Translations under genes and position numbers: made by a program
In this document: piece by piece, positions 1 through 18,072 of the stretch
Position numbering within the stretch: the first letter of the stretch is position 1
Layout of the letters: every line of letters begins with the position of its first letter
The notes under the pieces: model-generated
Database searches by the model: none
What the model was told of the DNA's origin: nothing
What the model saw: only the letters and a program-made list of their open reading frames with translations
Virus record (IMG/VR): IMGVR_UViG_2651869696_000004
Source of the DNA: a virus
Taxonomy: Duplodnaviria > Heunggongvirae > Uroviricota > Caudoviricetes
DNA length: 23,729 bases
Direction: 5' to 3' (one strand)

Positions 1-102
1 TGCCCGTTGACGGACTTCGGGGGAAAAACGAGTATTTTTAGTCATCCTGTTTACCTCTTTCTCAGGAAGTTTAGTCTCCAGGATTCCCGGGGCGGTTCAT
101 AA
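1..102 (+). CDS. 3' end of an ORF entering from the left edge (frame 1, stop TAA 100-102); possible upstream partner of the DUF1524 gene
   Basis: Open frame from window edge to TAA at 100-102, 4 nt before the TTG at 107; no recognisable motif in the 33 visible codons. Confidence 0.3.
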   Translation, partial: CPLTDFGGKTSIFSHPVYLFLRKFSLQDSRGGS

Positions 103-106
103 AGAA

Positions 107-946
107 TTGGTTGATGGTTTTGGCACAACCCCCATCTCACACTTTGGATATCGCATCGCAGACTATGATGTGACGACACTTTATCCGCTTGCTTTGTTCA
201 TTTCGATAGCTAACATCGCTGATGATGAGAAAGCAGCCATGTATAATGATCTTGTCTCCTACGTAGTACGAAGAGCCGTATGTGGCCTGACGCCAAAGAA
301 TTACAACAATGTATTTATGAATGTATTGCGGCACTTGGCTAAAACGGAAATTTCCAGTGTTGAGTTACGTAATATCCTCAATAACTTAAATGGCGAAGCC
401 TCACGTTGGCCTGGTGACTCAGAATTTCTCAACGCTTGCATCAATGCTCCACTTTATCCTGGCAGGCTCGACGCACCGAAAATGCGCTCAATGTTAACGG
501 AACTTGAAAGAGAACTTTGTCGCCAAGTGAAGACCGAAAAGCCTGATGTTCCAAATCTTTCTAATCTCGATATCGATCATCTTATGCCCCAAAGTTGGTA
601 TTCCTGTTGGCCTCTCGAAAATGGTCGTATGGTGACAAATTCAGATGCTACGGTATTGAACCAAATTGTTCTGTCTGGAACCGATCTTACCCCTGAACAG
701 CTACTGGTAAGGAAACGGCAACAAGCGATAGCTACTTTGGGAAATCTAACTTTGCTTAACCTTAGCGTAAACCGTTCTGTTCAGAATGCTGTATTTCTGA
801 AAAAACGTGATGCTCTCATCGTCCACACCAATCTACGACTGAACATTCCACTTATAGTTAAGGATAAATGGGATGAGGATGAAATCCTGGAGCGGGGTAA
901 AAATTTGGGGGAAATTGCATTGAAAGTATGGCCAAAACACGATTAA
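107..946 (+). CDS. DUF1524/GmrD-like His-Me finger (HNH-type) nuclease domain protein; start codon uncertain (TTG at 107 or ATG at 239)
   Basis: Motifs DIDHLMPQS and GNLTLLNLSVNRSVQNAVFLKKRD match the DUF1524 signature found at the C-terminus of GmrSD-type enzymes; in-frame stop at 8-10 excludes a longer N-terminus in this frame; appears lower in GC than the phage genes by eye. Confidence 0.7.
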   Translation: MVDGFGTTPISHFGYRIADYDVTTLYPLALFISIANIADDEKAAMYNDLVSYVVRRAVCGLTPKNYNNVFMNVLRHLAKTEISSVELRNILNNLNGEASRWPGDSEFLNACINAPLYPGRLDAPKMRSMLTELERELCRQVKTEKPDVPNLSNLDIDHLMPQSWYSCWPLENGRMVTNSDATVLNQIVLSGTDLTPEQLLVRKRQQAIATLGNLTLLNLSVNRSVQNAVFLKKRDALIVHTNLRLNIPLIVKDKWDEDEILERGKNLGEIALKVWPKHD

Positions 947-967
947 TGCAATTAATAAAATGATTAT

Positions 968-993
968 AGCGGCCTTACCTTAGTAAGGCCGCT
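968..993 (+). terminator. Stem-loop (10-bp stem agcggcctta / taaggccgct, 6-nt loop) 22 nt after the DUF1524 gene stop; possible bidirectional terminator
   Basis: Perfect inverted repeat read directly; flanked by A/T-rich sequence on both sides but no clean U-tract on the plus strand. Confidence 0.45.
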
Positions 994-1041
994 ACTCACT
1001 ATTAAATACTTTAATTTGCATCAAGAACAGCAATGTCAGCC

Positions 1042-1170
1042 CTAGGTCTCGGACTTTGTACCGCTTATCTTGTTTTCAAAAATCAGCTCGCATCCTGCAC
1101 AGTTCAGCGCATTACGTTGTAGATCTGTGTTCTGGTCATTTGTTGATACGCGTACATAGCCAATAAGCAT
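1042..1170 (-). pseudogene. Serine DNA invertase (Gin/Pin/Hin/Cin family) N-terminal remnant, 43 codons then TAG
   Basis: Minus-strand translation from ATG at 1170 gives MLIGYVRVSTNDQNTDLQRNALNCAGCELIFENKISGTKSET*, which matches the conserved invertase N-terminus including the catalytic Ser in YVRVST; similarity ends about codon 40 and no downstream invertase sequence is present. Confidence 0.85.
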
Positions 1171-1224
1171 GGTAGATCCCCCTGACAAAAGCAGGAATGA
1201 TGCCATTTGCTCGTTATTTCTGCA

Positions 1225-1250
1225 TTTTCATAAACGTTGGTTTGGGAGAA
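1225..1250. repeat. Left crossover site of invertible segment (TTTTCATAAACG-TT-GGTTTGGGAGAA)
   Basis: 26-bp site with two 12-bp half-sites around a 2-bp core; inverted relative to 3145-3170 with a 14-bp perfect match; resembles gix/hix/pix architecture. Confidence 0.7.
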
Positions 1251-2784: not shown

Positions 2785-3447
2785 TTATTCACCAACAGCC
2801 CACCAACTGTAAGTCATTGACACCTTGTCGCTGGTTGATGCAGTTCTGTAAGCAGAATTAAAGCCGGTTAATGTTGGGCCTTCTACGGACATAACGAATC
2901 CACGCCCTGCACCAAAAGGCGCACCGCCATCGCCAGAATGGGTAAGAATGGCGATATCCGCTTTTTTAGGGAAAGGGATAGGAAATGTAATCCTCATTGT
3001 TTGCGTCGATAATTTCGGCATAGCCTCACCTCGACCATATTGCAGGATTTTCCCGTTGGGTAATTTCATCCATCCATCACCACTGGCAAAAGAGGTCATG
3101 TCCGGTATCTGATTTTCCCCTGTCCCCACCCCTCGTTTTGCTGCTTCTCCCAAACCAAGGTTTTCGAGAGCCGTTTTCACCGTGCCATCCGATTTGATAT
3201 CACCAAACGGATTCTTGCGGCTTAACAGCAGAGCACGAAGCGCGGTAAGCAACTGGTCGTTTCGCCCCTTCTCCAGGCTGGCACCGGATGCCTCCACCAC
3301 GCTGCAAAGCTCCTCCTGCAACATATCAAAGTAGTCATCATCCAGATCGGTGGCAGGTGTGCCGGTCTGGGGGTTACCACGGGTAAAACCGTTCTTACCC
3401 GCGCCGAACTTATCCTTCTGCGCGGTTTTCGTGTCTATACGATGCAT
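2785..3447 (-). CDS. Tail fibre protein (StfP-like); constant N-terminal part outside and variable C-terminal part inside the invertible segment
   Basis: 220 aa directly downstream of the gp48-like gene; crossover site 3145-3170 falls at codons 93-101 ([12 protein letters not shown]). Confidence 0.8.
3145..3170. repeat. Right crossover site of invertible segment (TTCTCCCAAACC-AA-GGTTTTCGAGAG)
   Basis: Inverted copy of the 1225-1250 site; core dinucleotides are identical when the sites are aligned in the same orientation. Confidence 0.7.
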
Positions 3448-3450: not shown

Positions 3451-4035
3451 TTACTCCGGATATTTAAAAATTACGTAGGTATGCGACGGGCAGAGTTTGT
3501 TAAGCACACACTCGACAACGGTGTCGCCCCAGATACGCAGCGCGGAATCACAGGGATCGCCACATGTCATCCAGGTGGTGTTGGTGGCAGCTGGCATGTT
3601 GACCTGCCAGTAATACCGCCATTCCGGCGCATTCACCGCGTCAGTACAGGCCAATGAGCAGGTGAAGGTGCTTTTGTCGTATCGCGTGATGGTGGCAGCT
3701 GGTCTGCCCAGGGCAGCAAGCTGGGCAAGATAAAAATCCTCGTTGATGCCGCCCGCCAGGTTAACCTTCGCATCCAGCCGTTGCTGACGCTGGCGAAGGG
3801 TCTGTGTCCCTGTAGGAATACATTCATCCGGCAGGCCGCACAGACGCTCCCAGCGATTTATCAGTTCGGTGGTGGTGCGCGGATCCAGCTCCCGCATCAG
3901 GGCATCCGCACGCTGATGAACGCGGGTTAATGACGGTGCCGCACCGGCAATCGCCGGATCGCTGGCTGACCACGCCGGACCGGGCGGCAACAGTGCTGAC
4001 AACAGACGGATGTAATCATCGTTTGTCACGTCCAT
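3451..4035 (-). CDS. Mu gp48-like tail protein (DUF2313/YmfQ-like)
   Basis: 194 aa; position between baseplate J-like gene and tail fibre; N-terminus [16 protein letters not shown] typical of this family. Confidence 0.75.
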
Positions 4036-5084
4036 GAAATCGCCCCCAGAACCGCCAGCTCATTTTTCGCAATGGTGATATTGTCCGCCGGTGCAAGCAA
4101 CTGATGGCTGTATTCCCCGTTCGCACCGGAAATCGCTTCACTGATACGTGACACCTTCAGTTCTCCCTGCGGATAACCATCACGCAGCAGGAACGAACGC
4201 AACTCCGCGGTGATGGCAGCCCGTATTTCCGGTGTGTCCGGCGTCACACGGATATGAAAATCCACCGTATGTGCCACCGGCCTGAACACATACAAATCAG
4301 AGCCTGCCACCGGGGCCAGTGGCCCGATATGTTGTCTTGCCGCCGTTTCCGTTGATTCTTCCGGAATGGGATTAATCAGGTCACTGCTGGCAATCATCAC
4401 ACCGACAGTCCCCGTTCCCATCCAGTGTCGGTATGTCCATGCGCGGGTAATGCCAGGCACTTCTTTAGCCCAGACGACATAGTCCCCGTCAGCCCCGCCC
4501 TGCGGCGTCCAGTAATACCGCTCAATGACGCGGGCGCGCCACGTTTCCAGCTCTTCAGTATCAAATCCGCCTGTCAGGGTGTCAGCCACACCGGAAGACG
4601 GCAGACCATTCACCGGCGTGACCAGGATTAATGCCGTACCGTCGTCAGCGTTACCGACCGCACCTGCACTTGAGCAGGCGATCGGCACGCGCAGGACACC
4701 ACCGGAGCTGATTGCATCGTCAGTTGTCGTGTACTGCACCAGGTCATCGCGCTGAATAACACTCCCGGCAGTCACCTTCAGGCCATCGCTGACACCTTCC
4801 CAGCGCATATACCCGCTGGCAACCGTGGCACCCTTGCGCGGACACCGTTTCATCGCAGCATGTCGCGCCAGCCAGGACTCATCGCACAGGTCAGGCAGCA
4901 TATTCATTGCCAGATAATCGATGTAACCGTAGACCGTATGCAGCGCCGCCGCATACACCTTTGCCCGCACGTCTTCATCCATGCGCCGGAGCGTGTCGCT
5001 GACGTCCAGCCTGGCGAATAAATCGTTACGGAGCATACTGATATTTTCTGCCAGCGTCGGGCGCTGAAATTCACTGTCCGCCAT
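4026..5084 (-). CDS. Baseplate J-like protein (Mu gp47-like)
   Basis: 352 aa; conserved position and length in Mu-like baseplate module. Confidence 0.8.
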
Positions 5085-5499
5085 GCGTTATCGCACTCCA
5101 CAGATCATCAAAAGAAATCACTACTGGTCCATCACGACGCCAGAGGGTGATACTGTTACCCAGCTCATTAATCCCGGTGCGGTGGATATCCAGATCAATA
5201 CGGGACACCACGCCGTCATCAATCATCCATTGCAGGCATTCGCGGATATATCCCCTTACCGTCTGCACCAGCTGATTGGTCAGTTTGCTGCGCTGAAGCA
5301 GCCACAGTCGGGAGCCGTAACGGTCATTCTGTACCGCAGGCCAGGTATCCCCCCACCATCCCATCGGGACGTCGGCATTGTCATCAGGCTCCGCCCGCCG
5401 CCAGGTGAACAGGGAAATCACCACGGCGCGGGTCAGCGGATCCAGCGGTGCGCTGGCGCAGGTGCGTTTACCGTTCACCGTCAGCCACAGTTCCATCAT
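5071..5499 (-). CDS. Mu gp46-like baseplate protein
   Basis: 142 aa; synteny between baseplate V and J-like genes. Confidence 0.7.
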   Translation of the reverse strand: MMELWLTVNGKRTCASAPLDPLTRAVVISLFTWRRAEPDDNADVPMGWWGDTWPAVQNDRYGSRLWLLQRSKLTNQLVQTVRGYIRECLQWMIDDGVVSRIDLDIHRTGINELGNSITLWRRDGPVVISFDDLWSAITHGGQ

Positions 5500-6044
5500 G
5501 CCTCCATCGCTTTATCAGGTTTGTCGGTGTTACTGCCCTGACCGTTCTCCCTGTGACGATGCCCGTTATAGGCAAGCCGCATCGCTGACATGGTGGTGCC
5601 GCCGGAGTCGCACAGGTCTTTCACCTGTCCGGTCACTTCCAGATCCATTTCAAAACGTGCTTCAGGTGCATTGCGAAACGTGATCGTTTTCCCTGCACCG
5701 TCCACCACGATCCCCTCCCGGGTCAGCGTCACAGACTGCCCCTGATCGTCATAGACAGCCACCTCACCCGTCTGCAGCCCTTTCAGGCGGTAGCGCCGGT
5801 CCGACACCGTAACAACCACCGCATGAGAACGGTCGCCATCCGGAAACAACACCACCGCTTCCGCACCGCTGTTTGCCCTTGCGGTAAAACCGTAGGGTTC
5901 AAGATGTTCAACCCCGGCTTTGGGTTCACCGGCAATCAGGGACACATCCACGGTCTGACATTTCGTGGCGGCACTGATGCTTTTCACCACGGCCCGCCCA
6001 ATCAGGCCGAGGAGTTGTCGCTGCATGGCTTCAATCGTCCTCAT
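5496..6044 (-). CDS. Baseplate assembly protein V / spike (Mu gp45-like)
   Basis: 182 aa; synteny; overlapping start/stop with neighbours. Confidence 0.75.
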   Translation of the reverse strand: MRTIEAMQRQLLGLIGRAVVKSISAATKCQTVDVSLIAGEPKAGVEHLEPYGFTARANSGAEAVVLFPDGDRSHAVVVTVSDRRYRLKGLQTGEVAVYDDQGQSVTLTREGIVVDGAGKTITFRNAPEARFEMDLEVTGQVKDLCDSGGTTMSAMRLAYNGHRHRENGQGSNTDKPDKAMEA

Positions 6045-7123
6045 CAGAACGGGTCCTCCTGTACTCTGGCTTTTTTCTTTTTCCGCGCGCCGGGGGCTTC
6101 GGGTTCAGGCAGATAAGCATCAGGTGGGCCGACACGGATTTCCGTCAGGGTGCCGTTCTGGTCCTGAGTAAACGTGACTTCCGAAACAAGCAGTTCAGTA
6201 TTGTCGAAACCACAGACCGGATCGAAGACAATCACCCGCTGGTTGGGCTGCCACAGCGTACCGTTACCCTGTCGCCAGCCCTGCACCACATAGGTGGTTT
6301 CATCCGTCCGCGCCGCCCGTTGTCGGGCTTCAAAGTCAGCACGTGCAATACAGCCTGCCCCCGTAGCCTGCCCTGTCTGCCTGATATACATCGGACGGTA
6401 ACGGGCAATAAATGCGTCCTCTGTGCGGGCCCGCAGCGCGGTGGTGGTGGCCTCACCGAAATCATCGTCGTTTCCGGCACGCTGCCCCGCCACCTGGTAA
6501 ACAGAAAACCGCTCCCGGATACTCTTCTCCGTATCGCAGGAAAGGATGTTTTCCCCGAGTACCAGCGCAGTATGTGCCCGCGTTGAGCCAATCCCGCCAA
6601 TCACCAGCCTGCCGTGCGGGTCGTCATAAGCCAGTGCCTGCTGCTGACCGAGTATTTTGTTGATTACCTCAATCACCGTTTCACCATGATCAGGCTGGAC
6701 ATCAGTAATAACACCCGACGGCGCACCGTTGTTCACCACCTCAATGCCGAAAGGCGCAGCAAGCGCCTGCGCAATCTGTACCAGCGAGCGTCCGTTAAAC
6801 TGTGTCGGTTCGGCTGCACAGTCAATCAGGTCAGCCGTCAGACTACGTCCGGCAATACCGGTGCTGACCGAACGGGCATCGTAACGAACGGGCGTCGCCT
6901 CCACCCAGCCGGTGATCACCAGCTCATCACCAATCAGCACTTCCACTTTTGAACCGTTTTTAATGCGCGGCTGAAGCGTGGTGATACCCTCATCTCCCGG
7001 CCACTGGCGAGTGATCTCCACACTGAAATCCCGCGCCAGCCGTTCAATACCGGCACCGATGCGCACCGATGTCCAGCCATTCCACTCCCGGCCATTTACC
7101 CGTAGTGTGACATTGTCGTTCAT
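6044..7123 (-). CDS. Mu gp44 (P)-like baseplate hub / tail protein
   Basis: 359 aa; synteny downstream of DNA circulation gene; lysine-rich C-terminus KKKKARVQEDPF. Confidence 0.7.
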   Translation of the reverse strand: MNDNVTLRVNGREWNGWTSVRIGAGIERLARDFSVEITRQWPGDEGITTLQPRIKNGSKVEVLIGDELVITGWVEATPVRYDARSVSTGIAGRSLTADLIDCAAEPTQFNGRSLVQIAQALAAPFGIEVVNNGAPSGVITDVQPDHGETVIEVINKILGQQQALAYDDPHGRLVIGGIGSTRAHTALVLGENILSCDTEKSIRERFSVYQVAGQRAGNDDDFGEATTTALRARTEDAFIARYRPMYIRQTGQATGAGCIARADFEARQRAARTDETTYVVQGWRQGNGTLWQPNQRVIVFDPVCGFDNTELLVSEVTFTQDQNGTLTEIRVGPPDAYLPEPEAPGARKKKKARVQEDPF

Positions 7124-8448
7124 TGCACTGGCACCTTCAGAGGGATCACCGGCACAAAGCCGGGATGCGTAATGGCATTACGCCGGATAATGTCCGCGTC
7201 ACGCGCCGCGTTATCAAACCAGGTCGCCGCCAGCACCAGCGCGGGTAAAACCTCATCCGGTGTGCGCTGAATGATCCGTGCAGACTGTTCAAGGCGCGTG
7301 TTGATATCCGCATTCAGATCTGCTTTCACCCGGCGCAGCGCCAGAAACAGCGCATCACTGGTTGTACGGGACAACTCCTTATCAATTGCCGTATTCAGTG
7401 TGTCGCGAATGTCAGTCAGTTCTTCCCACGTCGGCAGGTCAACCGTGTTTTTCACCGCCGGTGCATTGTTCAGTGCCGGATGCGTGACGGAAGGCCAGCC
7501 AGTGCTCTGCGCAGGTGTTGTTGCCTGCTCCACTGCGGCATTCTGCATCACCGCGGAAGTTGTTGGCGCAGGCAATCGGGTGACGGCATACGCCGCTTCG
7601 CTGATTGCGGTCGTACGAAGGGTGCTGGCAACCACGTTACGCTGCTGCGTCGCCGTGGCGGTGGTTTTACTGTCCGTTTTCCAGACGCCGCGCGGTTGCA
7701 GATCGCTGCCGAGGCTGACACCGGAAAGCGTTTTGATCATGGTGACCAGGTCGCTGGCGTTACCATAAAGGCGTTTCCCGGTACGCCACATTTTCTGCAC
7801 CTGCTCAACGAAATTTTTGCCTGACGATGGCGGCGGCAGAAGTACCGAGATATCCCCCTGCAACAGCCTGGCGGCATCCGATACGGCAGAATCCACCACT
7901 TTCATCGCATCAGAAACATACCCAAGCATTGTGCTGGCATTACCGACGACGTCGTTCTGCACAAAATCTGCCACGCCATCGATACTGAAACCACTGAAAC
8001 TGTCACTGATGCAGTCATCCAGTGCAGAACAGGATGACATCAGCGTCTGCGCCGTCGCCGCACCTGATGTGGGGTAAGAGAGTTCTCCCGCTTCGACAAA
8101 CTTCAGGTCAAAGCGGACAATACGCCCTTCACTCTTCGATGTGCTGACCCGAACCTCCCCGTCAACACAGACTTTCAGCTCACCGTATGTCGGATGGACA
8201 AGCGTGCCGGGACCGGGTTTATTCAGCGCGTCAATCAGGCGATCGCGCTGGTCAAAGCAGTCATCTCCCACCACATAAGCCGTGATGGACGGGCGGAAAG
8301 TGATTTTCCCCAGGTCTTCGGCATAGGGTTTGTCGCGGTTCGGGTATTCGTGCGTTTCCACACGACGACCGGTTCCCGCACTTTCTTCTTCAACCTTAAA
8401 CGGCACACCGCGAAATGACGCGTCCTGAAGTCTGTCTTTCCACGTCAT
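7120..8448 (-). CDS. DNA circulation protein (Mu N / gp43-like); start moved to ATG at 8448
   Basis: N-terminal MTWKDRLQDASFRGVPF is characteristic of the Mu N family; GGAG Shine-Dalgarno 5-8 nt upstream of ATG 8448; the track start at 8490 lacks this. Confidence 0.75.
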   Translation of the reverse strand: MTWKDRLQDASFRGVPFKVEEESAGTGRRVETHEYPNRDKPYAEDLGKITFRPSITAYVVGDDCFDQRDRLIDALNKPGPGTLVHPTYGELKVCVDGEVRVSTSKSEGRIVRFDLKFVEAGELSYPTSGAATAQTLMSSCSALDDCISDSFSGFSIDGVADFVQNDVVGNASTMLGYVSDAMKVVDSAVSDAARLLQGDISVLLPPPSSGKNFVEQVQKMWRTGKRLYGNASDLVTMIKTLSGVSLGSDLQPRGVWKTDSKTTATATQQRNVVASTLRTTAISEAAYAVTRLPAPTTSAVMQNAAVEQATTPAQSTGWPSVTHPALNNAPAVKNTVDLPTWEELTDIRDTLNTAIDKELSRTTSDALFLALRRVKADLNADINTRLEQSARIIQRTPDEVLPALVLAATWFDNAARDADIIRRNAITHPGFVPVIPLKVPVQ

Positions 8449-8508
8449 ATAAACTCCGTACATAAAAAATCCCACCGGAGTGGGACTCATTAACAGATTA
8501 ATTTTTCA

Positions 8509-10344
8509 TTACCTGCCAAAGCGCGTATAGCCAACATCATGGCTGACATCAAAACCGCTGGATCGCGTTTCCATAACCCGCATACCCGGAGGCGAATTCA
8601 CAAAAGAGACCTTGATCTCACCATCAACTTTTGGCGCAGAAGCTTTGTTAATCATGAAGGGATTCGGGCCTGTGGCATCGGAGGCGTTGTTTGACTGAGC
8701 CGGATCTACCGCCGGATAAGGTGTGTATCCCCGCGCCGGTATTCCCGTCCCATAAGCATCATAAGCACCCGCGCCCCACTGCGCAGAGTTAATGGCATCG
8801 ACCGTGTCACCGGAACTGTCGGTAAACCACTCAATAATTGGCTTCAGCTTGTCCCACATATTCTGAAACCACTTAACAACCGGTCCCCAGTTATTGATGA
8901 CCATCCCCAGCGGCGACCAGGCAAAAACTTTCTTCAGAAGTTCCCAGCCAGCCTCAAAATAAGGACCAATGGTTTCCCAGAGTTTCTTAAAATAAGGTCC
9001 GACAACATCCCAGTTAGTGATAATTAATCCCGCAGCCAGGGCTATCGCCGTCGCAATCATGCCAATCGGCGTCATCGACATGATCCTGCTGACAATACTG
9101 ATGGCACCGCCAACGCCCATCAATCCCAGTTTCAGAATCGCAAGACCGGCAGCAAGCCCGACGACGCCGCGAATAACCCGGGGATTTTCATCCGCAAACT
9201 TCGTGAATTTTTCCCCTAACACCCCCAGCCATTGCGTGATATTTTTAGCGTCACCAGAAAATGCGCCGCCAATAGCTGCAAGACCGTTAGTTGCGGTCCC
9301 CGTCATTGCCTCCCACAGGTTGGACAGCGTACCAAGCTGTGCCTGAACACGTTTATTCAGGCTGGCCTGTTTATTCATCTTCTGCTGGATCTGATCGTAG
9401 CCATCCTTTCCTTTATCGATTAGTGCATTGACCACCTGAAGGGTTTCGGCATCATCACCAAATATTGCCTTAAGTACACCTGTTCGCTTAACGTCGGTCA
9501 GTTTTCGCAGCTTTGCCAGTTGCCTGAACATGTTATCAAGACCGCCAAAACTTCCTTTGCCGTCAGTAAAATCGAGCTGTACCCCGAGTTTCTGGCGGGC
9601 CATGACTTTATTGACGTCCCTGATTTTCTTAACGCTTAATCCGGACTGGATAACTTTTCGCAGGGCATTACCTGCCGACTCCCCGTTCATCCCCATCTGA
9701 TCCATCATGACGCTGATGGGGGCAAGGCTCTGTGCAGCCTGAAGACCGTCCTTGTTCACCATCTTCAGAACAGAGCTGGTTTTAGTGAAGAAGGACAACA
9801 TGTTGGTATCGTCAACGCCCAGATAAAACGCCTTCTGGATAGTGTCGAACAGCCCCATCATGTCTTCTGACGCCGTTCCGGTAGCATCCTGCATCTTTGC
9901 GGCAAACTCAGCAGCCGCTTCCGGTGTTTTTTTCAGTTGTACCGCAAGATAAGCAGTCGCTTTCCCCACACCGCCAAGAATGTTTTCTGCCGGGATCCCC
10001 TGACGCACCAGCATCTGCATCATGTTCTGGAAATCAGCCGTTGTACCGGGTAGCTGGTTACCCAGACCAATAGCCAGTTTATTGATGTCCTGAAAGCTCT
10101 TTCCGACCTCACCGTTCGCATCCATCATGGCAACTTTCAGCCCGGTGGCGGCGTTTTCCTGATCGGCATAAGATTTCAGGGAAAGCGTCAGACCCGCTGC
10201 CAGTCCGCCACCAAGCGCCAGCCCACCCTGTGACGCTTCTTCCGCCTGGCGTTTAAATCCCCGGATTTTCTTTTGCATTTTCGACAGCGCGGGAGAAAGC
10301 CTGTCGACACCGGTGATCAACGCCTTAAGCTCAAATTCAGCCAT
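8509..10344 (-). CDS. Tail tape measure protein
   Basis: 611 aa; Gly/Ala-rich hydrophobic central segments; sits downstream of the chaperone pair. Confidence 0.85.
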   Translation of the reverse strand: MAEFELKALITGVDRLSPALSKMQKKIRGFKRQAEEASQGGLALGGGLAAGLTLSLKSYADQENAATGLKVAMMDANGEVGKSFQDINKLAIGLGNQLPGTTADFQNMMQMLVRQGIPAENILGGVGKATAYLAVQLKKTPEAAAEFAAKMQDATGTASEDMMGLFDTIQKAFYLGVDDTNMLSFFTKTSSVLKMVNKDGLQAAQSLAPISVMMDQMGMNGESAGNALRKVIQSGLSVKKIRDVNKVMARQKLGVQLDFTDGKGSFGGLDNMFRQLAKLRKLTDVKRTGVLKAIFGDDAETLQVVNALIDKGKDGYDQIQQKMNKQASLNKRVQAQLGTLSNLWEAMTGTATNGLAAIGGAFSGDAKNITQWLGVLGEKFTKFADENPRVIRGVVGLAAGLAILKLGLMGVGGAISIVSRIMSMTPIGMIATAIALAAGLIITNWDVVGPYFKKLWETIGPYFEAGWELLKKVFAWSPLGMVINNWGPVVKWFQNMWDKLKPIIEWFTDSSGDTVDAINSAQWGAGAYDAYGTGIPARGYTPYPAVDPAQSNNASDATGPNPFMINKASAPKVDGEIKVSFVNSPPGMRVMETRSSGFDVSHDVGYTRFGR

Positions 10345-10519
10345 GTGTGCGTTTCTCCTGCTCTATCCTGTTTGCCTGACTGACCAGCAAGGGAATTTCA
10401 CTGATCGGCATATTCAGCAATTCGAAGGGATTAATGCGCCAGTAGCTGGCGCAGTCAAAGAAGCGATCAGTGAGGTATTCAGCCGTCAGGCCTGGAGGAA
10501 AAAACCGGCCACAAGCCAC
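10337..10519 (-). CDS. Tail assembly chaperone -1 frame extension (GT-like)
   Basis: ORF in the -1 frame overlapping the 3' end of the chaperone gene and running to the tape measure start. Confidence 0.6.
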   Translation of the reverse strand: MACGRFFPPGLTAEYLTDRFFDCASYWRINPFELLNMPISEIPLLVSQANRIEQEKRTHG

Positions 10520-10755
10520 GCCGCTGCATTCAGGTCTGCCGGAGACATCTGGTCGACAGAGTTTTGCGGCACTTTCGCCAGCCGCACAATGTATTTCGAT
10601 ACCACATGCGCCAGAAGTCTGACGGACTCATCCTGATTCATCTGGTAGGGATACCCCAGCTCGCGGACATCTTTCCCGGTGGGCTCATCAAACTCCAGTA
10701 CGGAGAGTGTCTCGCCATGAGCGGTAATCGGTTTCTTTAACTCAAGCTCTTTCAT
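10486..10755 (-). CDS. Tail assembly chaperone (G-like, Mu gp41 analogue)
   Basis: 89 aa between tube and tape measure genes; ends 6 codons after a slippery heptamer. Confidence 0.65.
   Translation of the reverse strand: MKELELKKPITAHGETLSVLEFDEPTGKDVRELGYPYQMNQDESVRLLAHVVSKYIVRLAKVPQNSVDQMSPADLNAAAWLVAGFFLQA
10498..10504 (-). promoter_or_regulatory. Candidate -1 programmed frameshift slippery heptamer T_TTT_TTC
   Basis: Minus strand reads gcc ggT TTT TTC ctc cag gcc tga in the chaperone frame; the overlapping ORF is in the -1 frame. Confidence 0.5.
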
Positions 10756-11111
10756 TACTGGTAATCCCCTTCTTCACCGTGGAACTCAAGATCGACCGTG
10801 CCTTCTTCGGCATTATGGTTCGCTTCGCCGTGCAGCCAGGCAGACGACAGTACATAGACCTGACCGTTCGCCAGCTCGGCAGTGATGGTCATCTCATCAG
10901 ACGAGGTGATTTTGCTCACCGGAAAATTCTTCGGCACCTTGAAGGTCCCTTTGACATAAGGCGCACGGTGAGTTTCCTTGCGGTCCACTGAACCGTCCAG
11001 GCCGATGATGTCATCATTGACCGTCCTGTTCATGGGCACCTCAATGCCGCCGGTCAGCGATAGCTGCTGACCGTCAATTTTGAAATAACAGGTTCCCCCG
11101 ATACGGGCCAT
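10755..11111 (-). CDS. Tail tube protein (Mu gp40-like)
   Basis: 118 aa immediately downstream of sheath gene. Confidence 0.8.
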   Translation of the reverse strand: MARIGGTCYFKIDGQQLSLTGGIEVPMNRTVNDDIIGLDGSVDRKETHRAPYVKGTFKVPKNFPVSKITSSDEMTITAELANGQVYVLSSAWLHGEANHNAEEGTVDLEFHGEEGDYQ

Positions 11112-12607
11112 TATGCAGACTCCTCTGAATACTGAAGACGGAACTGATTAACCACGGCAAAGACACGCAGCTGGTTAACATAGTCAGGCGGGAACAGCGT
11201 GTTCAGGCGGTTCGGATCGCTGGCATCACGCTCCACAACCAGGTACTGCTTAAACAGTTCGTAGTTTTCCACGATCCCCGCACGCTCAAGCTGACGGTAG
11301 GTTGCCAGCAGTTCCCCTTTGATCACCGCCGGGGTGACAATCGCCTGACCGGGACCAAAGCGGGTACCGTCACTGGCAAGCTTGTGACGCCCGTACTTAC
11401 TGGTAATGACGGATTTCAGTTTGCGCAGTACATACGCGCTGGTATGCAGCGTCTCACTGTCGAGGTAACTGTTATCCGCAACCCCGTAAGCGTTTTTCCT
11501 GTACGTGGTGACATCACGCTGAATGCGTAGTACCCCGTTTTCGACATACGCCGTTGCCACGCCATGAGACAGCAGGGTCTGTTGTTCGGTCATCGTGAAC
11601 CGTTTCCCCTTCGGCGCAGGCAGCATACCCACCAGCTCACCGGTCTGCGTGGGACGTGCCGGATCGTTGCGGATAAACACCGCTGCGCGGGCGGTACGGC
11701 TTGCCGCCAGCTCGTCGGCAGGCGTCTGGGTCTCTTTTTCGTACCCCGCCAGGGTAATGTGCTGCTGGTTAAACTGGTCACCTGCGGTCACCAGTTCTGA
11801 CAGCGTGCCGATCTTTGCCGTATACACATGACCATACAGCTGACGCGCATAGCTCCAGCGACCGCTGGTATCGTTCATCTCGGTCACCAGCGTGTTAACG
11901 GAGGCCGTGTCGTTGAACGGCAGGCCGATATAATCAAACGGCTCATCCGCCATTGCAGCCACCGCGCCGGTGAGAACAGGAGAGCCCGTTCCGGCGGTCC
12001 CCGTCGCCACGGCAATCTGTACGCCCGCAGGCAGCACTTCGCCCCCACCAAAGCCGTAGTAATTGAGGCTGACAGGAATTTCATTCCCGCAAAGCCCCTT
12101 ATGACGCGCGGTCAGTGTGACCACGCCAGCCGAAGATGAGGCCGTAAACGGCAGGGCCGGAACGGCATTGATGGCATCCTGGATACTGCTGGCAATCGTC
12201 GTGACGTTATCGCCGTTAGTCACCGGTGCCTGCACGCGGGTACGTCCCACATAAACATTCACCGTGCCGGTTTCGGTTGCCGCCCCGGTCACCGTCAGCG
12301 TAACTGTTGCCGCCGCGCCCGTGGATTCAGGAACGGCAATTACATACAGTTCACCAAACGGGTCGGTCTGGCGATAAGCCTCGACCATACGCGCCAGCTG
12401 ACTTCCCGCACCACAAATCTGGCGTGCATAGTCTGCCGACGGCATCAGCACCAGACTGTTGGCAACAATCTCTGCACCGTTATTGGCATGACCAATCAGC
12501 AGCGATGCTCCGCTGTCCTGTGCAGTATTCGCCGCCTGGTTATCCATTTCCGCATAAAACAGCGGAACCAGCGTATTCGACGGAATGGTGTTAAAGCTTA
12601 TCGTCAT
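11111..12607 (-). CDS. Contractile tail sheath protein (Mu L / gp39-like)
   Basis: 498 aa; position and size; followed by the tube gene with ATGA overlap. Confidence 0.85.
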   Translation of the reverse strand: MTISFNTIPSNTLVPLFYAEMDNQAANTAQDSGASLLIGHANNGAEIVANSLVLMPSADYARQICGAGSQLARMVEAYRQTDPFGELYVIAVPESTGAAATVTLTVTGAATETGTVNVYVGRTRVQAPVTNGDNVTTIASSIQDAINAVPALPFTASSSAGVVTLTARHKGLCGNEIPVSLNYYGFGGGEVLPAGVQIAVATGTAGTGSPVLTGAVAAMADEPFDYIGLPFNDTASVNTLVTEMNDTSGRWSYARQLYGHVYTAKIGTLSELVTAGDQFNQQHITLAGYEKETQTPADELAASRTARAAVFIRNDPARPTQTGELVGMLPAPKGKRFTMTEQQTLLSHGVATAYVENGVLRIQRDVTTYRKNAYGVADNSYLDSETLHTSAYVLRKLKSVITSKYGRHKLASDGTRFGPGQAIVTPAVIKGELLATYRQLERAGIVENYELFKQYLVVERDASDPNRLNTLFPPDYVNQLRVFAVVNQFRLQYSEESA

Positions 12608-12760
12608 CGGTGTTCACCTTTTTATTCACGCGCCGGATATCACCCGCTGCTTCACGGCGCAGCCAGTAGTTATTCTCGTCAACATTTCGCCCTTCGGCGG
12701 GCAAAAGGTCACCGCGGGCAGGGTCAGGCACTGACCGCCCTTTAACAGGTTTCACAAACA
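12591..12760 (-). CDS. Small DUF2635-like Mu-type protein, apparently disrupted by a 1-nt frameshift
   Basis: ATG at 12760 gives MFVKPVKGRSVPD, then the protein-like continuation PARGDLLPAEGRNVDENNYWLRREAAGDIRRV... lies in the next frame (stop 12591-12593); in-frame reading stops at 12626. Confidence 0.4.
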
Positions 12761-12769
12761 TGAAGATTC

Positions 12770-13330
12770 TCAGGAAGGAAGGGTTATTTCGGTGTGATGT
12801 TCGATATCGCCGTCAGGCCCGTTACCGGGATCGAGATAATCAACATCAATCGCCAGCGTTCGCAGTTCATCCAGACTGTTCAGGTCATCCTGCTGGCGGG
12901 TATCGTCTTCAGTCAGCTCGCTGATGATCGAAAAATCGAACTGATAAATCAGCTCATGACGATTCAGATCCAGCAGCGTGCCGCCGTCATAGTTAATCGG
13001 ATTACCGCACGCTTCCGGGTTCCAGCCCAGCAGGGCCTTAAAGAGCATCTGCCGGACATCGTCCACCACATCATACGAAGCAAACTGACCGCGCTCATCA
13101 CGCCCGTTACTCAGTATGACAACCACGGAGAAGCCCTCTTTCAGCTCCTGCCAGTAGTCGGTCTGGCTTTTGTTTTCTCCCGGAGAATCATCCCCCGGTA
13201 CCACATACGCCGCCGGGAGTCTCAGCTTTCCGACCTCCGGCAGATTTTTGAACTGTGCCGCGCCTGCAACCCGGTTTTCAAAATACGGACAGCGGGCACG
13301 CAGTGCAGCAATAACAGGCGTCAGTTTCAT
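12770..13330 (-). CDS. Putative tail completion / neck protein (virion structural, acidic)
   Basis: 186 aa; position between head-tail joining genes and sheath; assignment by synteny only. Confidence 0.45.
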   Translation of the reverse strand: MKLTPVIAALRARCPYFENRVAGAAQFKNLPEVGKLRLPAAYVVPGDDSPGENKSQTDYWQELKEGFSVVVILSNGRDERGQFASYDVVDDVRQMLFKALLGWNPEACGNPINYDGGTLLDLNRHELIYQFDFSIISELTEDDTRQQDDLNSLDELRTLAIDVDYLDPGNGPDGDIEHHTEITLPS

Positions 13331-13833
13331 CTGTGTCGTCGCTCCGGCTTCAGTGATTTACGCAATTCCCGCGCCAGAAAATAGCGTGTCCAGCTGTGGT
13401 TCTTTTCAAGCGTTTCCACCATGAAGTTATTACGTGGAGCCAGTCGCCAGCCTCTGCCACCGGATGCACCACGATGATGGCTGCGACGACGCTTTGCCCC
13501 TCTCTTCACGCCATAGAACAAAAAAGCCGGATAAAAATCACCGGTGATGCGGCGGTTTCCCTCACCATTACGCTGGTTAGGGGCTATACGTGCCATAAAA
13601 CCAGGGCGATGTTTACTGGCTCTGGGTACCATGTAACCAATCGAACGAGCCAGGCGTCCGGTCTGATAACCGGGGTTTTCACCCGGTGCCGACCGCGCAC
13701 GGCGCATCACCAGCCGACGGGCATCACGCATATGACGCTGACCAATCGTGACAAACGCCCGCCGGACACGGGCGCGGTTAAAGCGCATCTCCGCGGGCTG
13801 CTGAAAATCAACGTGCAAAAAGGAAGTCGTCAT
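13327..13833 (-). CDS. Head-tail joining protein (HK97 gp10-like family, tentative)
   Basis: 168 aa, basic; synteny downstream of adaptor. Confidence 0.5.
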   Translation of the reverse strand: MTTSFLHVDFQQPAEMRFNRARVRRAFVTIGQRHMRDARRLVMRRARSAPGENPGYQTGRLARSIGYMVPRASKHRPGFMARIAPNQRNGEGNRRITGDFYPAFLFYGVKRGAKRRRSHHRGASGGRGWRLAPRNNFMVETLEKNHSWTRYFLARELRKSLKPERRHR

Positions 13834-14218
13834 TGTTGCCTCCGTGACTCTGCCTACATTCGCCCAGCTCCGTACACTCCAGCAGCAGAAAGCGCCGCGC
13901 CCCGTTCAGATCGCGCTGACGTTTCACCCGGTACACACTGTCACCGCAGACCACCTCATAATCAGCGGTGATCCCCCGGCGGTAACGAATGGTGATGTAA
14001 TGGGTGATGGCGTCCCCGGTCTGCGCGGTTTCCTGCCAGGTGGTGGCACTGGTCTGGATAACCTTCGCCCATGTCCGGAACGTAACCGGGTATTGAGGCT
14101 CCACGCCAAAGTTATCCGCGGGCATATCCACCCGCAGGCGGATCAGGACGCGTTTATTCAGTTCACCGGGGTCCGGCAGAATGTAGGTTGCGCTGGTCTG
14201 CGCCTGACGAATTTTCAT
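13808..14218 (-). CDS. Head-tail adaptor / head closure protein
   Basis: 136 aa; synteny; sequence pattern compatible with Phage_H_T_join-type adaptors. Confidence 0.6.
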   Translation of the reverse strand: MKIRQAQTSATYILPDPGELNKRVLIRLRVDMPADNFGVEPQYPVTFRTWAKVIQTSATTWQETAQTGDAITHYITIRYRRGITADYEVVCGDSVYRVKRQRDLNGARRFLLLECTELGECRQSHGGNNDDFLFAR

Positions 14219-14538
14219 TGCGGAAAGTACCTGTACGGGCCGACAAGCCAGCCAAAACTCTGCGGCATGTCGAGTTTCTCCACTTCCGTAACCGACGAGC
14301 GGTTTTCGTAAAAATGGCTGATAAGCATCAGCATCCCCAGACGAATATCATCCGGCAGGTGCAGCCCGTCCGGATCGCTGTCCGGAATGGTTTCATCCGG
14401 TGCATAGAGCTTCCGGTTCAGATACGTTTCCGTCCGCTTTTGTGCCGCACATGCCAGCAGTTGCAGATGGCGGTCATCAGTATCGAAATCCTCATCCAGC
14501 CGGAGTTGGGCTTTAATCTCTTCCATTGTCAGAAGCAT
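14215..14538 (-). CDS. Head-tail connector protein (gp6-like)
   Basis: 107 aa; N-terminal MEEIKAQLRLDEDFDTDD is typical of gp6-like connector proteins. Confidence 0.65.
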   Translation of the reverse strand: MLLTMEEIKAQLRLDEDFDTDDRHLQLLACAAQKRTETYLNRKLYAPDETIPDSDPDGLHLPDDIRLGMLMLISHFYENRSSVTEVEKLDMPQSFGWLVGPYRYFPQ

Positions 14539-14540
14539 AC

Positions 14541-14741
14541 TCAGCCCTCTTTACTGGTCGTGGCTTTTTTCTCTTTTGCCGCTTTACTGCTTTTTGCACT
14601 GATTCCGCGCTCTGCTAACCCGGCCTGAAGTGCAATCTCCTGCACCCGGGCAGGAAGCGCCCCGTCGTCATACTCACCGGCCCGAATGACCTCAACACGC
14701 ATACCGTCCGGTGACCATTTCAGATCTTGTTTCAGGATCAT
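14541..14741 (-). CDS. Hypothetical small protein downstream of major capsid gene
   Basis: 66 aa ORF with Lys-rich C-terminus; no recognisable motif. Confidence 0.4.
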   Translation of the reverse strand: MILKQDLKWSPDGMRVEVIRAGEYDDGALPARVQEIALQAGLAERGISAKSSKAAKEKKATTSKEG

Positions 14742-14761
14742 GATTCTTCACCCGTCAGAAC

Positions 14762-14783
14762 AGGGGCGCGGTTCCGCGCCCCT
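14762..14783 (-). other. GC-rich stem-loop (9-bp stem, 4-nt loop) immediately 3' of the major capsid gene; no U-tract
   Basis: aggggcgcg-gttc-cgcgcccct read directly, between capsid stop (14790) and next start (14741). Confidence 0.5.
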
Positions 14784-14789
14784 GAGTGA

Positions 14790-15995
14790 TTACGCCGCTG
14801 CAATCTTCAGCAGTTTGATGGCCTGCGAATCGACCAGCATCCCGCCGGTGCGCTTGGTGGTATAAAAACCGACAAACGGTTTATTGGTGTACGGGTCACG
14901 CAGAATGCGGGTGCCGATACGGTCAACGATGGTGTAACCCCGTTTGAAGTTACCAAATGCAATGGCTTTCGCATCAGCGGCGATATCCGGCATCTGTTCG
15001 TTTTCAGCGATACCGTAACCCGCCAGAGAGGACGGCTGCCCCAGTTCCAGCCCCGGACGCCACAGATAGTTACCCTCGGTGTCTTTCAGCAGACGGATGG
15101 CAAACAGGCTGTTGTTGTTCATCATGAACTTCGCGCCAGTGCGGTGTGCCTTACGCAGCGTGTAAATCAGTTTGATAATGGCGTCTGCGGTCACCGCGGT
15201 CGCTTCGCCGGATACAATATGCTGAAGTTTGCCGAACGCCCGGACCTTGTCGGTTTCATCAGTGGATTCATACGCCAGGAACCCTTTCGGCTTCTTGGTA
15301 CCATCGCCGGTGGTAAAGGCAATTTCTTCCTGTTCGGCAAATTCGGTTGCCAGCTCGCTGTTGATCCAGGCCTCCACGTTGAAAAAGGCATCATCCAGCA
15401 TTTTCTGGGTGGCCTGCGGGTTACCGTAGATTTCCCCCATGAAAGGTTCAATCAGCCCCAGTCTGGAAGTGGCAGTCTGGGAGCGCGCGTCAGTCTCGCC
15501 AACCCATCCGGAAGCCGTGCCGCCCAGATTCACAAGTTTTTTGTAGTCGGAACCGCCAACGGTGATCACCGTGGCTTCCTGGCGCATCACCACTTCATCT
15601 TTCAGCAAGGTCAGAATGTTGCGATCCAGCGCTTCCGGCACGGCATAGCCACCGTCTTCATCGGTGCCCACCTGTAATGCCTTGCGCTCCAGATCGCGCA
15701 GACCATCTTCACGGCCTTTACGCAGGAAGCCCACAAACGCTTCTTTATGCTCGGTGGCCAGTTTATTCTGCGCACCACCTGCCGGACGTTTCAGCTCAAG
15801 CAGCTCTTTTTCAAGGTCGCTTTTGAGATTTTCCAGCTCGCTGAGTTTTCCGTTCAGGGTTTCCACCTGCCCGGCAAGTTTGCCTTTTTCCTGCTCAATC
15901 GCCTCCACGCGCTTGTCGTTCTTTGCTTTGAAGTCGTCAAACTTCTGCTGCAGCTCCTGCGCGACCTGTTCGACATCTTTAATATCTACCGCCAT
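14790..15995 (-). CDS. Major capsid protein, HK97 family
   Basis: 401 aa with N-terminal coiled-coil delta-like region followed by HK97-type capsid domain; follows the prohead protease. Confidence 0.9.
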   Translation of the reverse strand: MAVDIKDVEQVAQELQQKFDDFKAKNDKRVEAIEQEKGKLAGQVETLNGKLSELENLKSDLEKELLELKRPAGGAQNKLATEHKEAFVGFLRKGREDGLRDLERKALQVGTDEDGGYAVPEALDRNILTLLKDEVVMRQEATVITVGGSDYKKLVNLGGTASGWVGETDARSQTATSRLGLIEPFMGEIYGNPQATQKMLDDAFFNVEAWINSELATEFAEQEEIAFTTGDGTKKPKGFLAYESTDETDKVRAFGKLQHIVSGEATAVTADAIIKLIYTLRKAHRTGAKFMMNNNSLFAIRLLKDTEGNYLWRPGLELGQPSSLAGYGIAENEQMPDIAADAKAIAFGNFKRGYTIVDRIGTRILRDPYTNKPFVGFYTTKRTGGMLVDSQAIKLLKIAAA

Positions 15996-16009
15996 CGTAT
16001 TTCTCCTGA

Positions 16010-16696
16010 TTAGAAGTTCAGATTTTTCAGTGCATTCAGTGCAGAGCTCACATCCTCAGCGTCGCGCAGGGACAGTGCGCTATAGCCCCCGGCCATGAAT
16101 GCTTTGGCCTGGGTACGGGAGAGTCCGACATCACGCAGGACTCTTTCGATTTTTTTCTGTTCGGGGATTTCCCCGCGGGCCAGCGCGTTCTTGACGTCGC
16201 TGATCCGTGCCTCGTCGTTAGACGGGAACGTCACCAGACTGACTTCCCAGAGGTCGATTTCTTTCAGCAGAAAGGCTTCTTTCGTCCGGTCGTATTCCCA
16301 GTCCTTCAGGACGTACCCAATAGAAAGGCCGGTTAACGAACCGGCCTTCATGTGTGCATGTGCGCGTTTTGCCAGGGGATCATCATCAATGAGCAACCGC
16401 CCCCTGACGTAAAGCCCGACATCGTCTTCCTTCATTTCGGTGTAAACACCGATGGGCTCATCCATGCGGTGCTGCCAGAGCAGCGCAGGTAACGCTTTTC
16501 TGTCACTCCACGCCCGCAGGGAAGCAGCAAATGCCCCGGACATCACCACATCATCGTGGCTGTCCTTTACACCAAAGACGGAGCCATACCCTTCAAACTC
16601 ACCGGAGTCACTGACAGATTTCAGACTCAGCGGTACATCAAGACGTTGTTTCGTCTGCATTGGCGTTATCCTTCTGCTTACCGGCTTTACTGCCAT
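16010..16696 (-). CDS. Prohead protease, HK97 family (start may be the internal ATG at 16660)
   Basis: 228 aa; GEFEGYGSVFGVKDSHDDVVMSGAF region typical of HK97 proteases; overlaps portal 3' end. Confidence 0.85.
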   Translation of the reverse strand: MAVKPVSRRITPMQTKQRLDVPLSLKSVSDSGEFEGYGSVFGVKDSHDDVVMSGAFAASLRAWSDRKALPALLWQHRMDEPIGVYTEMKEDDVGLYVRGRLLIDDDPLAKRAHAHMKAGSLTGLSIGYVLKDWEYDRTKEAFLLKEIDLWEVSLVTFPSNDEARISDVKNALARGEIPEQKKIERVLRDVGLSRTQAKAFMAGGYSALSLRDAEDVSSALNALKNLNF

Positions 16697-17879
16697 CGGA
16701 GGGTTTCGTGGTCATGTTCATCGGTGTGAGATAGACATCCCCACCGGGACGCGGATTCATATCTTCCAGGTCGCGGCAGTCATTGGGAGAGTAAATTCCC
16801 CAGTTAATCCCGGTGGCGTAGGCTTCAAAACGGGACTTCATATCCCCGCGCAGTAACGCCCCGGCGTTAAATTTGGCGTAATAAACGCCCTGCTTACTTT
16901 TTCGTACCAGTCCGGTGTTGATCCGCTGTTCGATGCGGGTCAGATACGGCACCAGTGAATAGTTGATAAATCCGAGCCCCAGTTCTTCGATATTGTTGAA
17001 GGTGGCGCGATCGGTGTTCTGCACCATGTGCAACGGTACCCGGAACAGACGACAGATTTCTTCAAGCTGAAACTTGCGGGTTTCCAGGAACTGGCTGTCC
17101 TCGGCGTTCAGCGCCATCGACTTCCAGTCCAGCCCCATCTCAAGGATCATCGGGCGGTGAGCATTGCCAAGCCCGGTGTGACGCTCCTCAAAATCTTTCT
17201 TCAGGCGCTCATAAGCCTGATCTGACAGCGTCTGCTCTGTACGCAACACACCCGACGTCACCGCACCATTGCTGAACAGTCTGGCCCCGTGCTCTTCAGT
17301 CGCTGCCGCCAGCGATATTGCCTCGCGGGCATAGGCGACGGGATTCAGCCCCACCAGTCCGTCCAGCGTCAGCGTGCGCACATGCCAGATATCCTCCTGG
17401 CTCAGCACATCCGTGGAGCCGTCCGGGAATGTGACCTGATAGACCGGCTCCCAGCTACTGTTAAGCTTCGGTACCACACAACCGGGATCGACGGGCAGCA
17501 GTTCAGCCACTTCGCCAAATGCTTTCACTTTGTAGGCGTAAAAGTTTCCCCTCAGGCACAGACAGGTGACCACCAGCTCCCAGAACTCCTGCGGCGTCAT
17601 ATAGCCATTGGGATGCGTGGAGATCAGCTTATGCAGACGTTCGCCGGTGGCTCTCTGTTTCAGGCTGCCGTTCAGGTGATACAGATTGCAGGGCAACATC
17701 CCGACCGACTCTGCCAGCACCCTGACGCAGGAAAAAACCGCCGTCAGTCGCATGGCCCGCTGGCTGCTGATCTGCTTTCCGGTATAGGTGTCATATGATA
17801 GCCCGATAGCCTCCGCCAGCTCTGCTGGCGTGGTCACCGGTGCGTCACTTTTTCGTTGAAATAATCCCGAAAAGAACAC
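16638..17879 (-). CDS. Portal protein, HK97 family
   Basis: 413 aa; position between terminase and protease; acidic C-terminal tail. Confidence 0.9.
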   Translation of the reverse strand: MFFSGLFQRKSDAPVTTPAELAEAIGLSYDTYTGKQISSQRAMRLTAVFSCVRVLAESVGMLPCNLYHLNGSLKQRATGERLHKLISTHPNGYMTPQEFWELVVTCLCLRGNFYAYKVKAFGEVAELLPVDPGCVVPKLNSSWEPVYQVTFPDGSTDVLSQEDIWHVRTLTLDGLVGLNPVAYAREAISLAAATEEHGARLFSNGAVTSGVLRTEQTLSDQAYERLKKDFEERHTGLGNAHRPMILEMGLDWKSMALNAEDSQFLETRKFQLEEICRLFRVPLHMVQNTDRATFNNIEELGLGFINYSLVPYLTRIEQRINTGLVRKSKQGVYYAKFNAGALLRGDMKSRFEAYATGINWGIYSPNDCRDLEDMNPRPGGDVYLTPMNMTTKPSDGSKAGKQKDNANADETTS

Positions 17880-18061
17880 TATTTACCTCCGCCGAAAGAC
17901 GGCTGTGTACGGTCGAGATATCGCGCCACCAGCCACGACCAGAACAGACACAACGCCCCGGCAACAACAAACCCCGCCGGGGGATAAATCAGCCAGGCAC
18001 CATACGCCAGCAAAAGCGCCCCCAGCACGCCCACCAGAGGCGCGAGAATCAGCATGATCAT
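17879..18061 (-). CDS. Small two-helix membrane protein between terminase and portal
   Basis: 60 aa with two hydrophobic segments; function unknown. Confidence 0.45.
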
Positions 18062-18072
18062 AATTACCTCAG

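Follow-up and report, generated by a model that had tools for sequence, protein, structure and literature searches.

A prophage-borne gmrSD gene of the UTI89 allele type, very probably reduced to a pseudogene fragment by IS629

Introduction

The left end of the 23,729-nucleotide stretch of Caudoviricetes DNA analysed here (hereafter the window) raises the question of what a nuclease gene at the edge of a prophage represents: a working two-gene restriction module, a single gene split by a frameshift, or the remains of something larger. A sequence-only reading had put forward the first two options, on the grounds that an open reading frame (ORF) with a DUF1524 signature and no N-terminal DUF262 domain is preceded by a second ORF that enters from the left and stops four nucleotides before it, and had viewed the locus as defence cargo at the prophage end.

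The enzymes against which such a gene must be compared have been characterised in some detail. Eco94GmrSD, a protein of 629 aa, carries out ATP-stimulated cleavage of DNA containing glucosylated 5-hydroxymethylcytosine (glc-5hmC) or 5hmC, and its nuclease activity is abolished by the substitutions D507A, H508A, and N522A (He et al., 2015; PMC4437046). It shares 93% amino-acid identity with UTI89_C2960 (the "UT enzyme"), which was inactive in vitro when purified and whose activity was inferred from the restriction of T2 and T6 by strain UTI89, a strain that excludes these two phages and not T4 (PMC4437046). Both properties, the cutting of glc-5hmC or 5hmC DNA and T-even phage exclusion, are accordingly documented in vitro and in vivo for Eco94 and CT596, and in vivo only for the UT allele (PMC4437046). 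GmrSD genes were reported to lie on SfII-like prophages, directly downstream of the tail-fibre genes (PMC4437046).

The nuclease gene and its intact orthologues

The anticipated DUF1524 signature was recovered by profile search, the ORF at 107-946 (Table 1) matching Pfam PF07510 (GmrSD_C, equivalent to DUF1524) at E = 8.3e-21 and 74.8 bits over 137 of the 138 profile positions. GmrSD_C is the sole Pfam family matched by the remnant, and a Pfam search of both the ORF and its extended frame returned no DUF262/GmrSD_N match, in agreement with the domain content first proposed. The motif DIDHLMPQS includes the published catalytic pair D507-H508, with N522 downstream, such that the C-terminal His-Me finger with its (D/E/H)HxxP...N motif is present in the remnant and comprises the very residues mutagenised in Eco94GmrSD. 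In the PADLOC collection, the ORF matches positions 351-629 of the 629-position model PDLC03655, "Type IV methyl-directed restriction enzyme" (mREase_IV), at E = 2e-190.

Table 1. Features of the window discussed in the text (strand as given; a dot marks a feature without assigned strand)
Feature	Position	Strand	Remarks
Left end (IRL side) of IS629 (IS3 family)	1-99	-	100% identity to the multicopy element; rest of the 1310 bp lies beyond the left window edge
First 15 codons of the IS629 transposase gene orfA, MTKNTRFSPEVRQRA	1-45	-	from translation; reads leftwards out of the window
3' remnant of single-chain gmrSD type IV restriction gene	100-946	+	codons K349-D629 (101-943) and stop
ORF	107-946	+	279 aa, TTG start; present in the ORF listing
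Counterpart of the "GmrD" chain (M395-D629) in the laboratory two-chain CT596 enzyme	239-946	+	Supplementary Fig. S1 of PMC4437046 against the window sequence
His-Me finger catalytic residues D507 (575-577), H508 (578-580), N522 (620-622)	575-622	+	numbering on the 629-aa protein
13-bp GC-rich hairpin that separates the gmrSD stop codon from the invertase remnant	966-995	.	terminator-like site, scored on the minus strand
Truncated pin-type serine invertase	1042-1206	-	about 52-54 codons left of 184; abuts the gmrSD remnant
20-nt inverted repeats, AAACGTTGGTTTGGGAGAAG	1232-1251 and 3144-3163		95% complementary; bound a 1.9-kb segment
Small HNH endonuclease gene	20423-20773	-	Pfam HNH, E = 3.8e-16; adjoins the terminase small-subunit gene
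184-aa ORF	20824-21378	-	between the HNH endonuclease and lysis genes; lowest-GC stretch (0.34 at 21001-21500)
DNA methyltransferase gene	22888-23729	-	Pfam N6_N4_Mtase; PADLOC type II MTase positions 121-332 of 333; continues past the right edge; lies just beyond the holin

Intact relatives reveal how much of the gene is missing. In strain WP2-S18-ESBL-07 (L001), the homologous DNA lies within a single gene of 1890 nt. Its product, a "DUF262 domain-containing protein" of 629 aa (WP_000834401.1), contains both GmrSD_N (E = 3.7e-34, residues 8-256) and GmrSD_C (residues 451-619) and matches the PADLOC type IV model over its full 629 positions, with 1410 bits. Loci with the intact 1890-nt gene are 99.7% identical in DNA over window positions 99-1250, and the remnant agrees with the C-terminus of the L001 protein at 280 of 281 residues, the single change being K616N. 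When the frame is read from base 101, the apparent TTG start at 107 corresponds to the internal Leu351 of the 629-aa gene and is not a start codon. The remnant, 847 nt in length, therefore makes up the 3' 45% of a single-chain gene and spans one half of the connector between the domains together with the complete DUF1524/GmrSD_C nuclease domain. As the N-terminal DUF262 domain that accompanies the nuclease in the same polypeptide elsewhere is cut off by IS629 at base 99/100, the window, on the evidence of its sequence, contains a fragment of a GmrSD family member and not a complete one.

The closest characterised counterpart is EcoUTI89GmrSD (UTI89_C2960, WP_000834402.1), with which the window copy shares gene and locus: a 629-aa single chain with DUF262 and DUF1524 domains, situated within an SfII/e14-like prophage at ssrA, beside a pin remnant with the same breakpoint and next to tail-fibre genes. 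In UTI89 the L001 gene finds a single match (2,903,828-2,905,717, 99.3% identity), which is situated downstream of ssrA and adjoins a pin remnant and tail-fibre genes, and this position is the prophage position given for UTI89_C2960 by He et al. (PMC4437046). UTI89-like (ST95-type) strains, including NU14, show 99.0% DNA identity to window 99-1250, the UTI89 record itself having been compared over the full-length gene only (99.3% to L001). The window copy differs from EcoUTI89GmrSD in being cut at codon 349 by IS629, in lacking the DUF262 half on this side, and in the substitution K616N. At the positions that distinguish the alleles in Supplementary Fig. S1 of PMC4437046, the window follows the UT allele (KELVDGF, HFGYRIADYD, RRAVCG, ENGRMV, KHD). 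Eco94GmrSD and EcoCT596GmrSD (PMC4437046; Bair and Black, 2007, as cited there) belong to the same family and share the architecture, the D507-H508-N522 residues, and a prophage location beside tail-fibre genes; they differ in being intact, biochemically active members of another allele group that is sensitive to T4 IPI* and restricts T4 without ip1, whereas the window carries UT-type residues.

Residue identity with the L001 protein, the UTI89 locus, the UT-type residues, and the PADLOC match all support orthology to the experimentally studied enzyme. Judged by these comparisons, window 100-946 is the back part of a known prophage-borne single-chain GmrSD gene of the UTI89 ("UT") allele type. 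A description of the gene, and of its place beside tail-fibre genes in an SfII-like prophage, has existed since 2015, and the proposed novelty of the locus therefore fails. Other defence proteins with DUF262 and DUF1524 domains, namely BrxU, SspE, PADLOC "Orf5", and HEC-06, follow the same two-domain logic; the intact orthologue matches the Orf5, HEC-06, and SspE models more weakly, at 57-259 bits as against 1410 bits for the type IV model. Among solved structures, a sequence search retrieved only 9jfl_B (E = 3.5e-8), over the N-terminal domain, as a distant DUF262 relative.

The IS629 end and the junction

The DNA to the left of the gene has a different origin. In a megablast search of window 1-1250 against 5,426 complete E. 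coli genomes, 296 genomes matched 99-1250 at 99-99.7% and never matched 1-98 in the same place; pairwise alignment with the intact gene likewise gave identity from window base 99 on and none earlier. Positions 1-99 are instead matched with 100% identity at 23,337 sites, both chromosomal and plasmid-borne, across 3,606 E. coli genomes, where the sequence is annotated "IS3 family transposase". A complete copy with the identical end (L006 390-1699) measures 1310 bp, has inverted ends beginning TGAACCGCCCCGGG, and is flanked by the 3-bp duplication TAT; over its full length it is 99.5% identical to features deposited as "insertion sequence: IS3 family IS629", and its annotated IS3-family transposase CDS, which includes a programmed frameshift, begins at the base corresponding to window 45. 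The name IS629 was thus assigned via annotated Stx-phage records, and the assignment is borne out by the terminal inverted repeat and by a multicopy distribution that ends exactly at the terminus. With IS629 as annotated in Stx phages of E. coli O157, the window shares the TGAACCGCCCCGGG termini and the orfA start; just 99 nt of the element fall in the window, with orfB, the site of the programmed -1 frameshift, and the other end outside it. A literature search with the IS terminal sequence returned nothing.

The IS629 end sits at codon 348/349 of gmrSD, inside the 84-aa connector. We infer a simple insertion rather than an IS-mediated deletion. In a 220-nt megablast against the 5,426 complete E. 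coli genomes, no copy of 1-99 ran on past base 99 into gmrSD (100-220). The exact IS/gene junction was found in none of these 5,426 genomes, and a 38-nt junction pattern searched in one genome per species gave no match; the IS629/gmrSD junction allele is known from this one sequence.

These alignments also settle the nature of the left-hand ORF. The open frame itself is real: frame 1 is open from base 1 for 33 codons and ends with TAA at 100-102, four bases before TTG107. It is, however, the antisense of the start of IS629 orfA and has no start codon, and its 33-residue translation has neither a Pfam match nor any similarity to gmrSD; an open stretch of 33 codons is unremarkable by chance, and this one is not a gene. 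As the supposed second ORF is the antisense of IS629 orfA, neither of the arrangements first considered applies.

A natural two-gene GmrS/GmrD-like module, in which the left-edge ORF would be the DUF262-bearing GmrS and the ORF at 107-946 the GmrD nuclease, would account for the close spacing of the two frames and for the lack of DUF262 in the downstream ORF. It would also demand a separate upstream DUF262 gene, and what lies there is an IS629 end unlike any part of gmrSD, whose translation matches nothing in Pfam. Moreover, intact loci carry a single 629-aa ORF, and the prototype for the arrangement, the "two-gene" gmrS/gmrD of strain CT596, is reportedly an artefact that arose when a single-chain gene was cloned (PMC4437046). 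The junction alignment and the identity of the IS refute the module, which has practically no probability left. The same holds for a single gmrSD gene divided by a frameshift, the remainder of whose protein would be encoded in the upstream frame. Two adjacent open frames on the same strand and a slippery-looking G5A5 run at 20-29 speak for such a split, but the DNA flanking a frameshift should resemble the gene on either side, and the DNA before base 99 fails to align with the gene while aligning with IS629 at 100%; we regard this reading as virtually impossible.

The cargo slot at the prophage end

The view of the locus as prophage-end cargo fared better than the proposals about its coding structure, and each of the observations behind it was upheld. 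GC content is 0.43 in 100-946 (0.41-0.43 for the cargo) as compared with 0.56 in the phage genes at 3451-20306, and the phage genes lie on the minus strand, opposite to the gmrSD remnant on the plus strand. The remnant directly abuts a truncated invertase, as stated at the outset. This invertase matches the Pfam Resolvase N-terminal domain over its residues 15-52 only (profile positions 2-47 of 145), does not retain the complete resolvase domain and C-terminal HTH of an invertase of about 184 aa, and is annotated "recombinase family protein, incomplete" in relatives. Alignment with the full-length pinE genes of ES5 and K-12 e14 and with the UTI89 remnant places the end of pinE homology at about 1046-1049, the same breakpoint as in UTI89. 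By this sequence evidence, the gmrSD block was joined to this prophage lineage once, in an ancestor. The hairpin between the gmrSD stop and the invertase remnant is likely a transcription terminator.

Neighbourhood comparison confirmed the suggested correspondence to the pin-mcrA position of prophage e14, the slot being the same in K-12 e14, where the order is ymfQ-stfP-tfaP-tfaE-stfE-pinE-mcrA-icdC. The two elements belong to one prophage lineage (ymfQ, ymfR, ymfL, and tfaE homologues) and share a slot composed of tail fibres, invertase, type IV restriction gene, and att site; they differ in that McrA is a protein of another family, which targets 5mC/5hmC, and in that pinE is full length in e14 and reduced to about 52 codons in the window. 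In related prophages of ES5 and 2009C-3133, similarity to the window begins only at about 1036-1049, and a full 184-aa pinE is followed by a GIY-YIG gene instead.

In L001, the order runs from ssrA through an AbiTii gene, a DinI-like pseudogene, gmrSD, the pin remnant, and the tail fibres to the integrase. The 3' end of ssrA (GGGTTCAACTCCCGCCAGCTCCACCA) recurs once in L001, on the far side of the integrase and of two small genes, where it immediately precedes the integrase of the next island; the repeat flanks the whole element, and gmrSD thus lies inside the att-bounded prophage. Strain 50EVA carries the same block of truncated DinI gene, gmrSD, and truncated pin, together with its prophage, at a tRNA-Pro gene, which indicates that the gene moves with the phage. 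The locus accordingly behaves as defence cargo at the prophage end, lying within the ssrA att repeats and beside the invertase, mobile with the prophage, and variable in content (mcrA, GIY-YIG, or gmrSD). The slot beside the invertase of e14/SfII-like prophages can therefore be viewed as a place where anti-phage genes are exchanged.

In the intact relatives, further variable, defence-like genes occupy the interval from ssrA to the DinI-like pseudogene. In WP2-S18-ESBL-07 this interval contains an AbiTii-family gene (L001 6145-7065; Pfam E = 3e-33, PADLOC E = 4.4e-33), and in UTI89 a GIY-YIG gene (L009 3176-3949) whose orientation relative to pin is opposite to that in ES5.

Distribution and repeated disruption of gmrSD

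Among the 5,426 complete E. coli genomes, gmrSD occurs in 306, always on the chromosome and at 93-100% identity. The full gene found no match among deposited phage genomes at megablast sensitivity.

Several other copies are interrupted as well. In a 1.2-kb Logan contig (SRR33574110; L005 1-63), found by exact look-up of the 279-aa ORF, a different insertion end lies 36 nt upstream of the window junction in a gene with the same N616 allele. From its terminal repeat, we take this end to be that of IS1. The contig had been considered a second instance of the window allele and was set aside as such, the alignment showing an IS1 end and thus a separate event. In 50EVA (L007 3001-4500), an IS3-family element, presumably IS2 from its appearance, is inserted in gmrSD at nt 123 with the 5-bp duplication AGGAT. 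Truncated forms in the databases (P0006, P0014) comprise a break after residue 481 and a 415-aa form that starts near residue 215. A 350-aa cluster member was evaluated as the matching N-terminal fragment and rejected, as it is an internal piece from a short contig. The notion that the connector is a hotspot for IS insertion was likewise discarded: the IS1 case was found via the same ORF call, which introduces an ascertainment bias, and the other breaks lie elsewhere.

Full-length CT596 gmrSD is strongly toxic at raised copy number (PMC4437046), and recurrent knockouts of gmrSD by different insertion sequences plausibly fit this reported toxicity. The repeated hits by IS629, IS1, and IS2 could reflect selection against a self-toxic defence gene.

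Loss of function and alternative readings

The sequence of events that best accommodates these findings begins with an ancestor strain that would have carried an e14/SfII-like myovirus prophage with a UT-type single-chain gmrSD as low-GC cargo at the tail-fibre end. In the intact 629-aa enzyme, the N-terminal DUF262 half (ParB-like, NTP-dependent or NTP-stimulated) is proposed to recognise DNA, and the C-terminal DUF1524 His-Me finger (D507-H508-N522) cuts glucosyl-hmC or hmC DNA and thereby excludes T-even phages. IS629 would then have transposed into codon 348/349, within the 84-aa inter-domain connector, with its transposase gene facing away from the remnant. What remains at the prophage is codons 349-629 without a promoter, a ribosome-binding site, a genuine start codon, or the DUF262 domain, the 3' 847 nt being parted from the promoter, the start, and the DUF262 half by what would be at least 1.3 kb of IS629. 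That the remnant lacks promoter, start codon, and DUF262 follows from the fact that similarity to the intact gene stops at 99/100, where the IS629 end begins. A simple scan for consensus sites found no sigma-70-like promoter in 1-1300, a result compatible with read-through transcription from the IS.

We accordingly consider, with high confidence, that the gmrSD copy of the window, cargo of an e14/SfII-like prophage and of the UT allele type, is a pseudogene fragment inactivated by IS629. Because neither GmrSD chain is active alone (PMC4437046), the strain has most probably lost GmrSD defence. The window copy is expected no longer to cleave glc-5hmC or 5hmC DNA or to keep out T-even phages, and no GmrSD-mediated T-even exclusion is predicted for the strain.

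One alternative is that the insertion created a working two-chain enzyme, in which a GmrS-like 5' half, encoded beyond IS629, would reassemble with a 3' half re-initiated at M395 (window 239), in the manner of the attenuated laboratory GmrS/GmrD and with less toxicity than the single chain. The position of the break invites this comparison: codon 349 falls within the connector at residues 311-394, an 84-aa segment that is missing from, and hence dispensable in, the active two-chain CT596 construct, and the GmrD chain of that construct begins (MYNDLVSYVV) at the methionine encoded at window 239 (Supplementary Fig. S1, PMC4437046). The toxicity of full-length CT596 gmrSD at higher copy number, cited above, also speaks for this reading, and the insertion would then represent a means for the host to keep a toxic type IV restriction enzyme at a tolerable level of activity. 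Against this, no promoter-like site precedes the remnant, and the intervening 1.3-kb IS has its transposase genes facing away, such that no transposase read-through is possible. The other independent disruptions, moreover, lie outside the connector (IS2 at nt 123, the break after residue 481, and the 415-aa form), and the pattern therefore looks like plain inactivation. We judge a functional two-chain enzyme to be very unlikely.

The remnant might also be produced by itself and have taken on a new role as an independent DUF1524 HNH nuclease, given that the domain and its catalytic residues are intact and only one substitution has accrued. GmrD alone, however, has no nuclease activity (PMC4437046), the remnant has no promoter or start signals, and its near-identity to intact alleles points to a recent insertion rather than to maintained function; this possibility is scarcely credible. 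With inactivation retained as the preferred reading, the locus is a known defence gene at a known prophage position, inactivated by a common insertion sequence, and is appropriately labelled as a gmrSD pseudogene fragment with an IS629 end and not as a two-gene restriction module.

Other features of the window

The segment bounded by the AAACGTTGGTTTGGGAGAAG inverted repeats contains alternative tail-fibre C-termini and tail-fibre assembly genes, and looks like a Pin-type invertible host-range switch. Truncation of its cognate invertase has probably locked this switch, unless a different invertase can serve it in trans.

Toward the right-hand end of the window, the arrangement of a small HNH gene beside the terminase small-subunit gene is the usual one in HK97-like cos-packaging phages; this HNH endonuclease has no relationship to the DUF1524 His-Me finger encoded near the left edge. 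The adjacent 184-aa ORF has no Pfam or PADLOC match, and related prophages have an equally long hypothetical protein annotated in the corresponding place. In the region near the holin, where the window has its DNA methyltransferase gene, related prophages carry a Kiwa KwaB-like gene (L004 24219-25103) or a KAP NTPase gene (L003 30991-32322), a variation that suggests a second cargo hotspot on the holin side.
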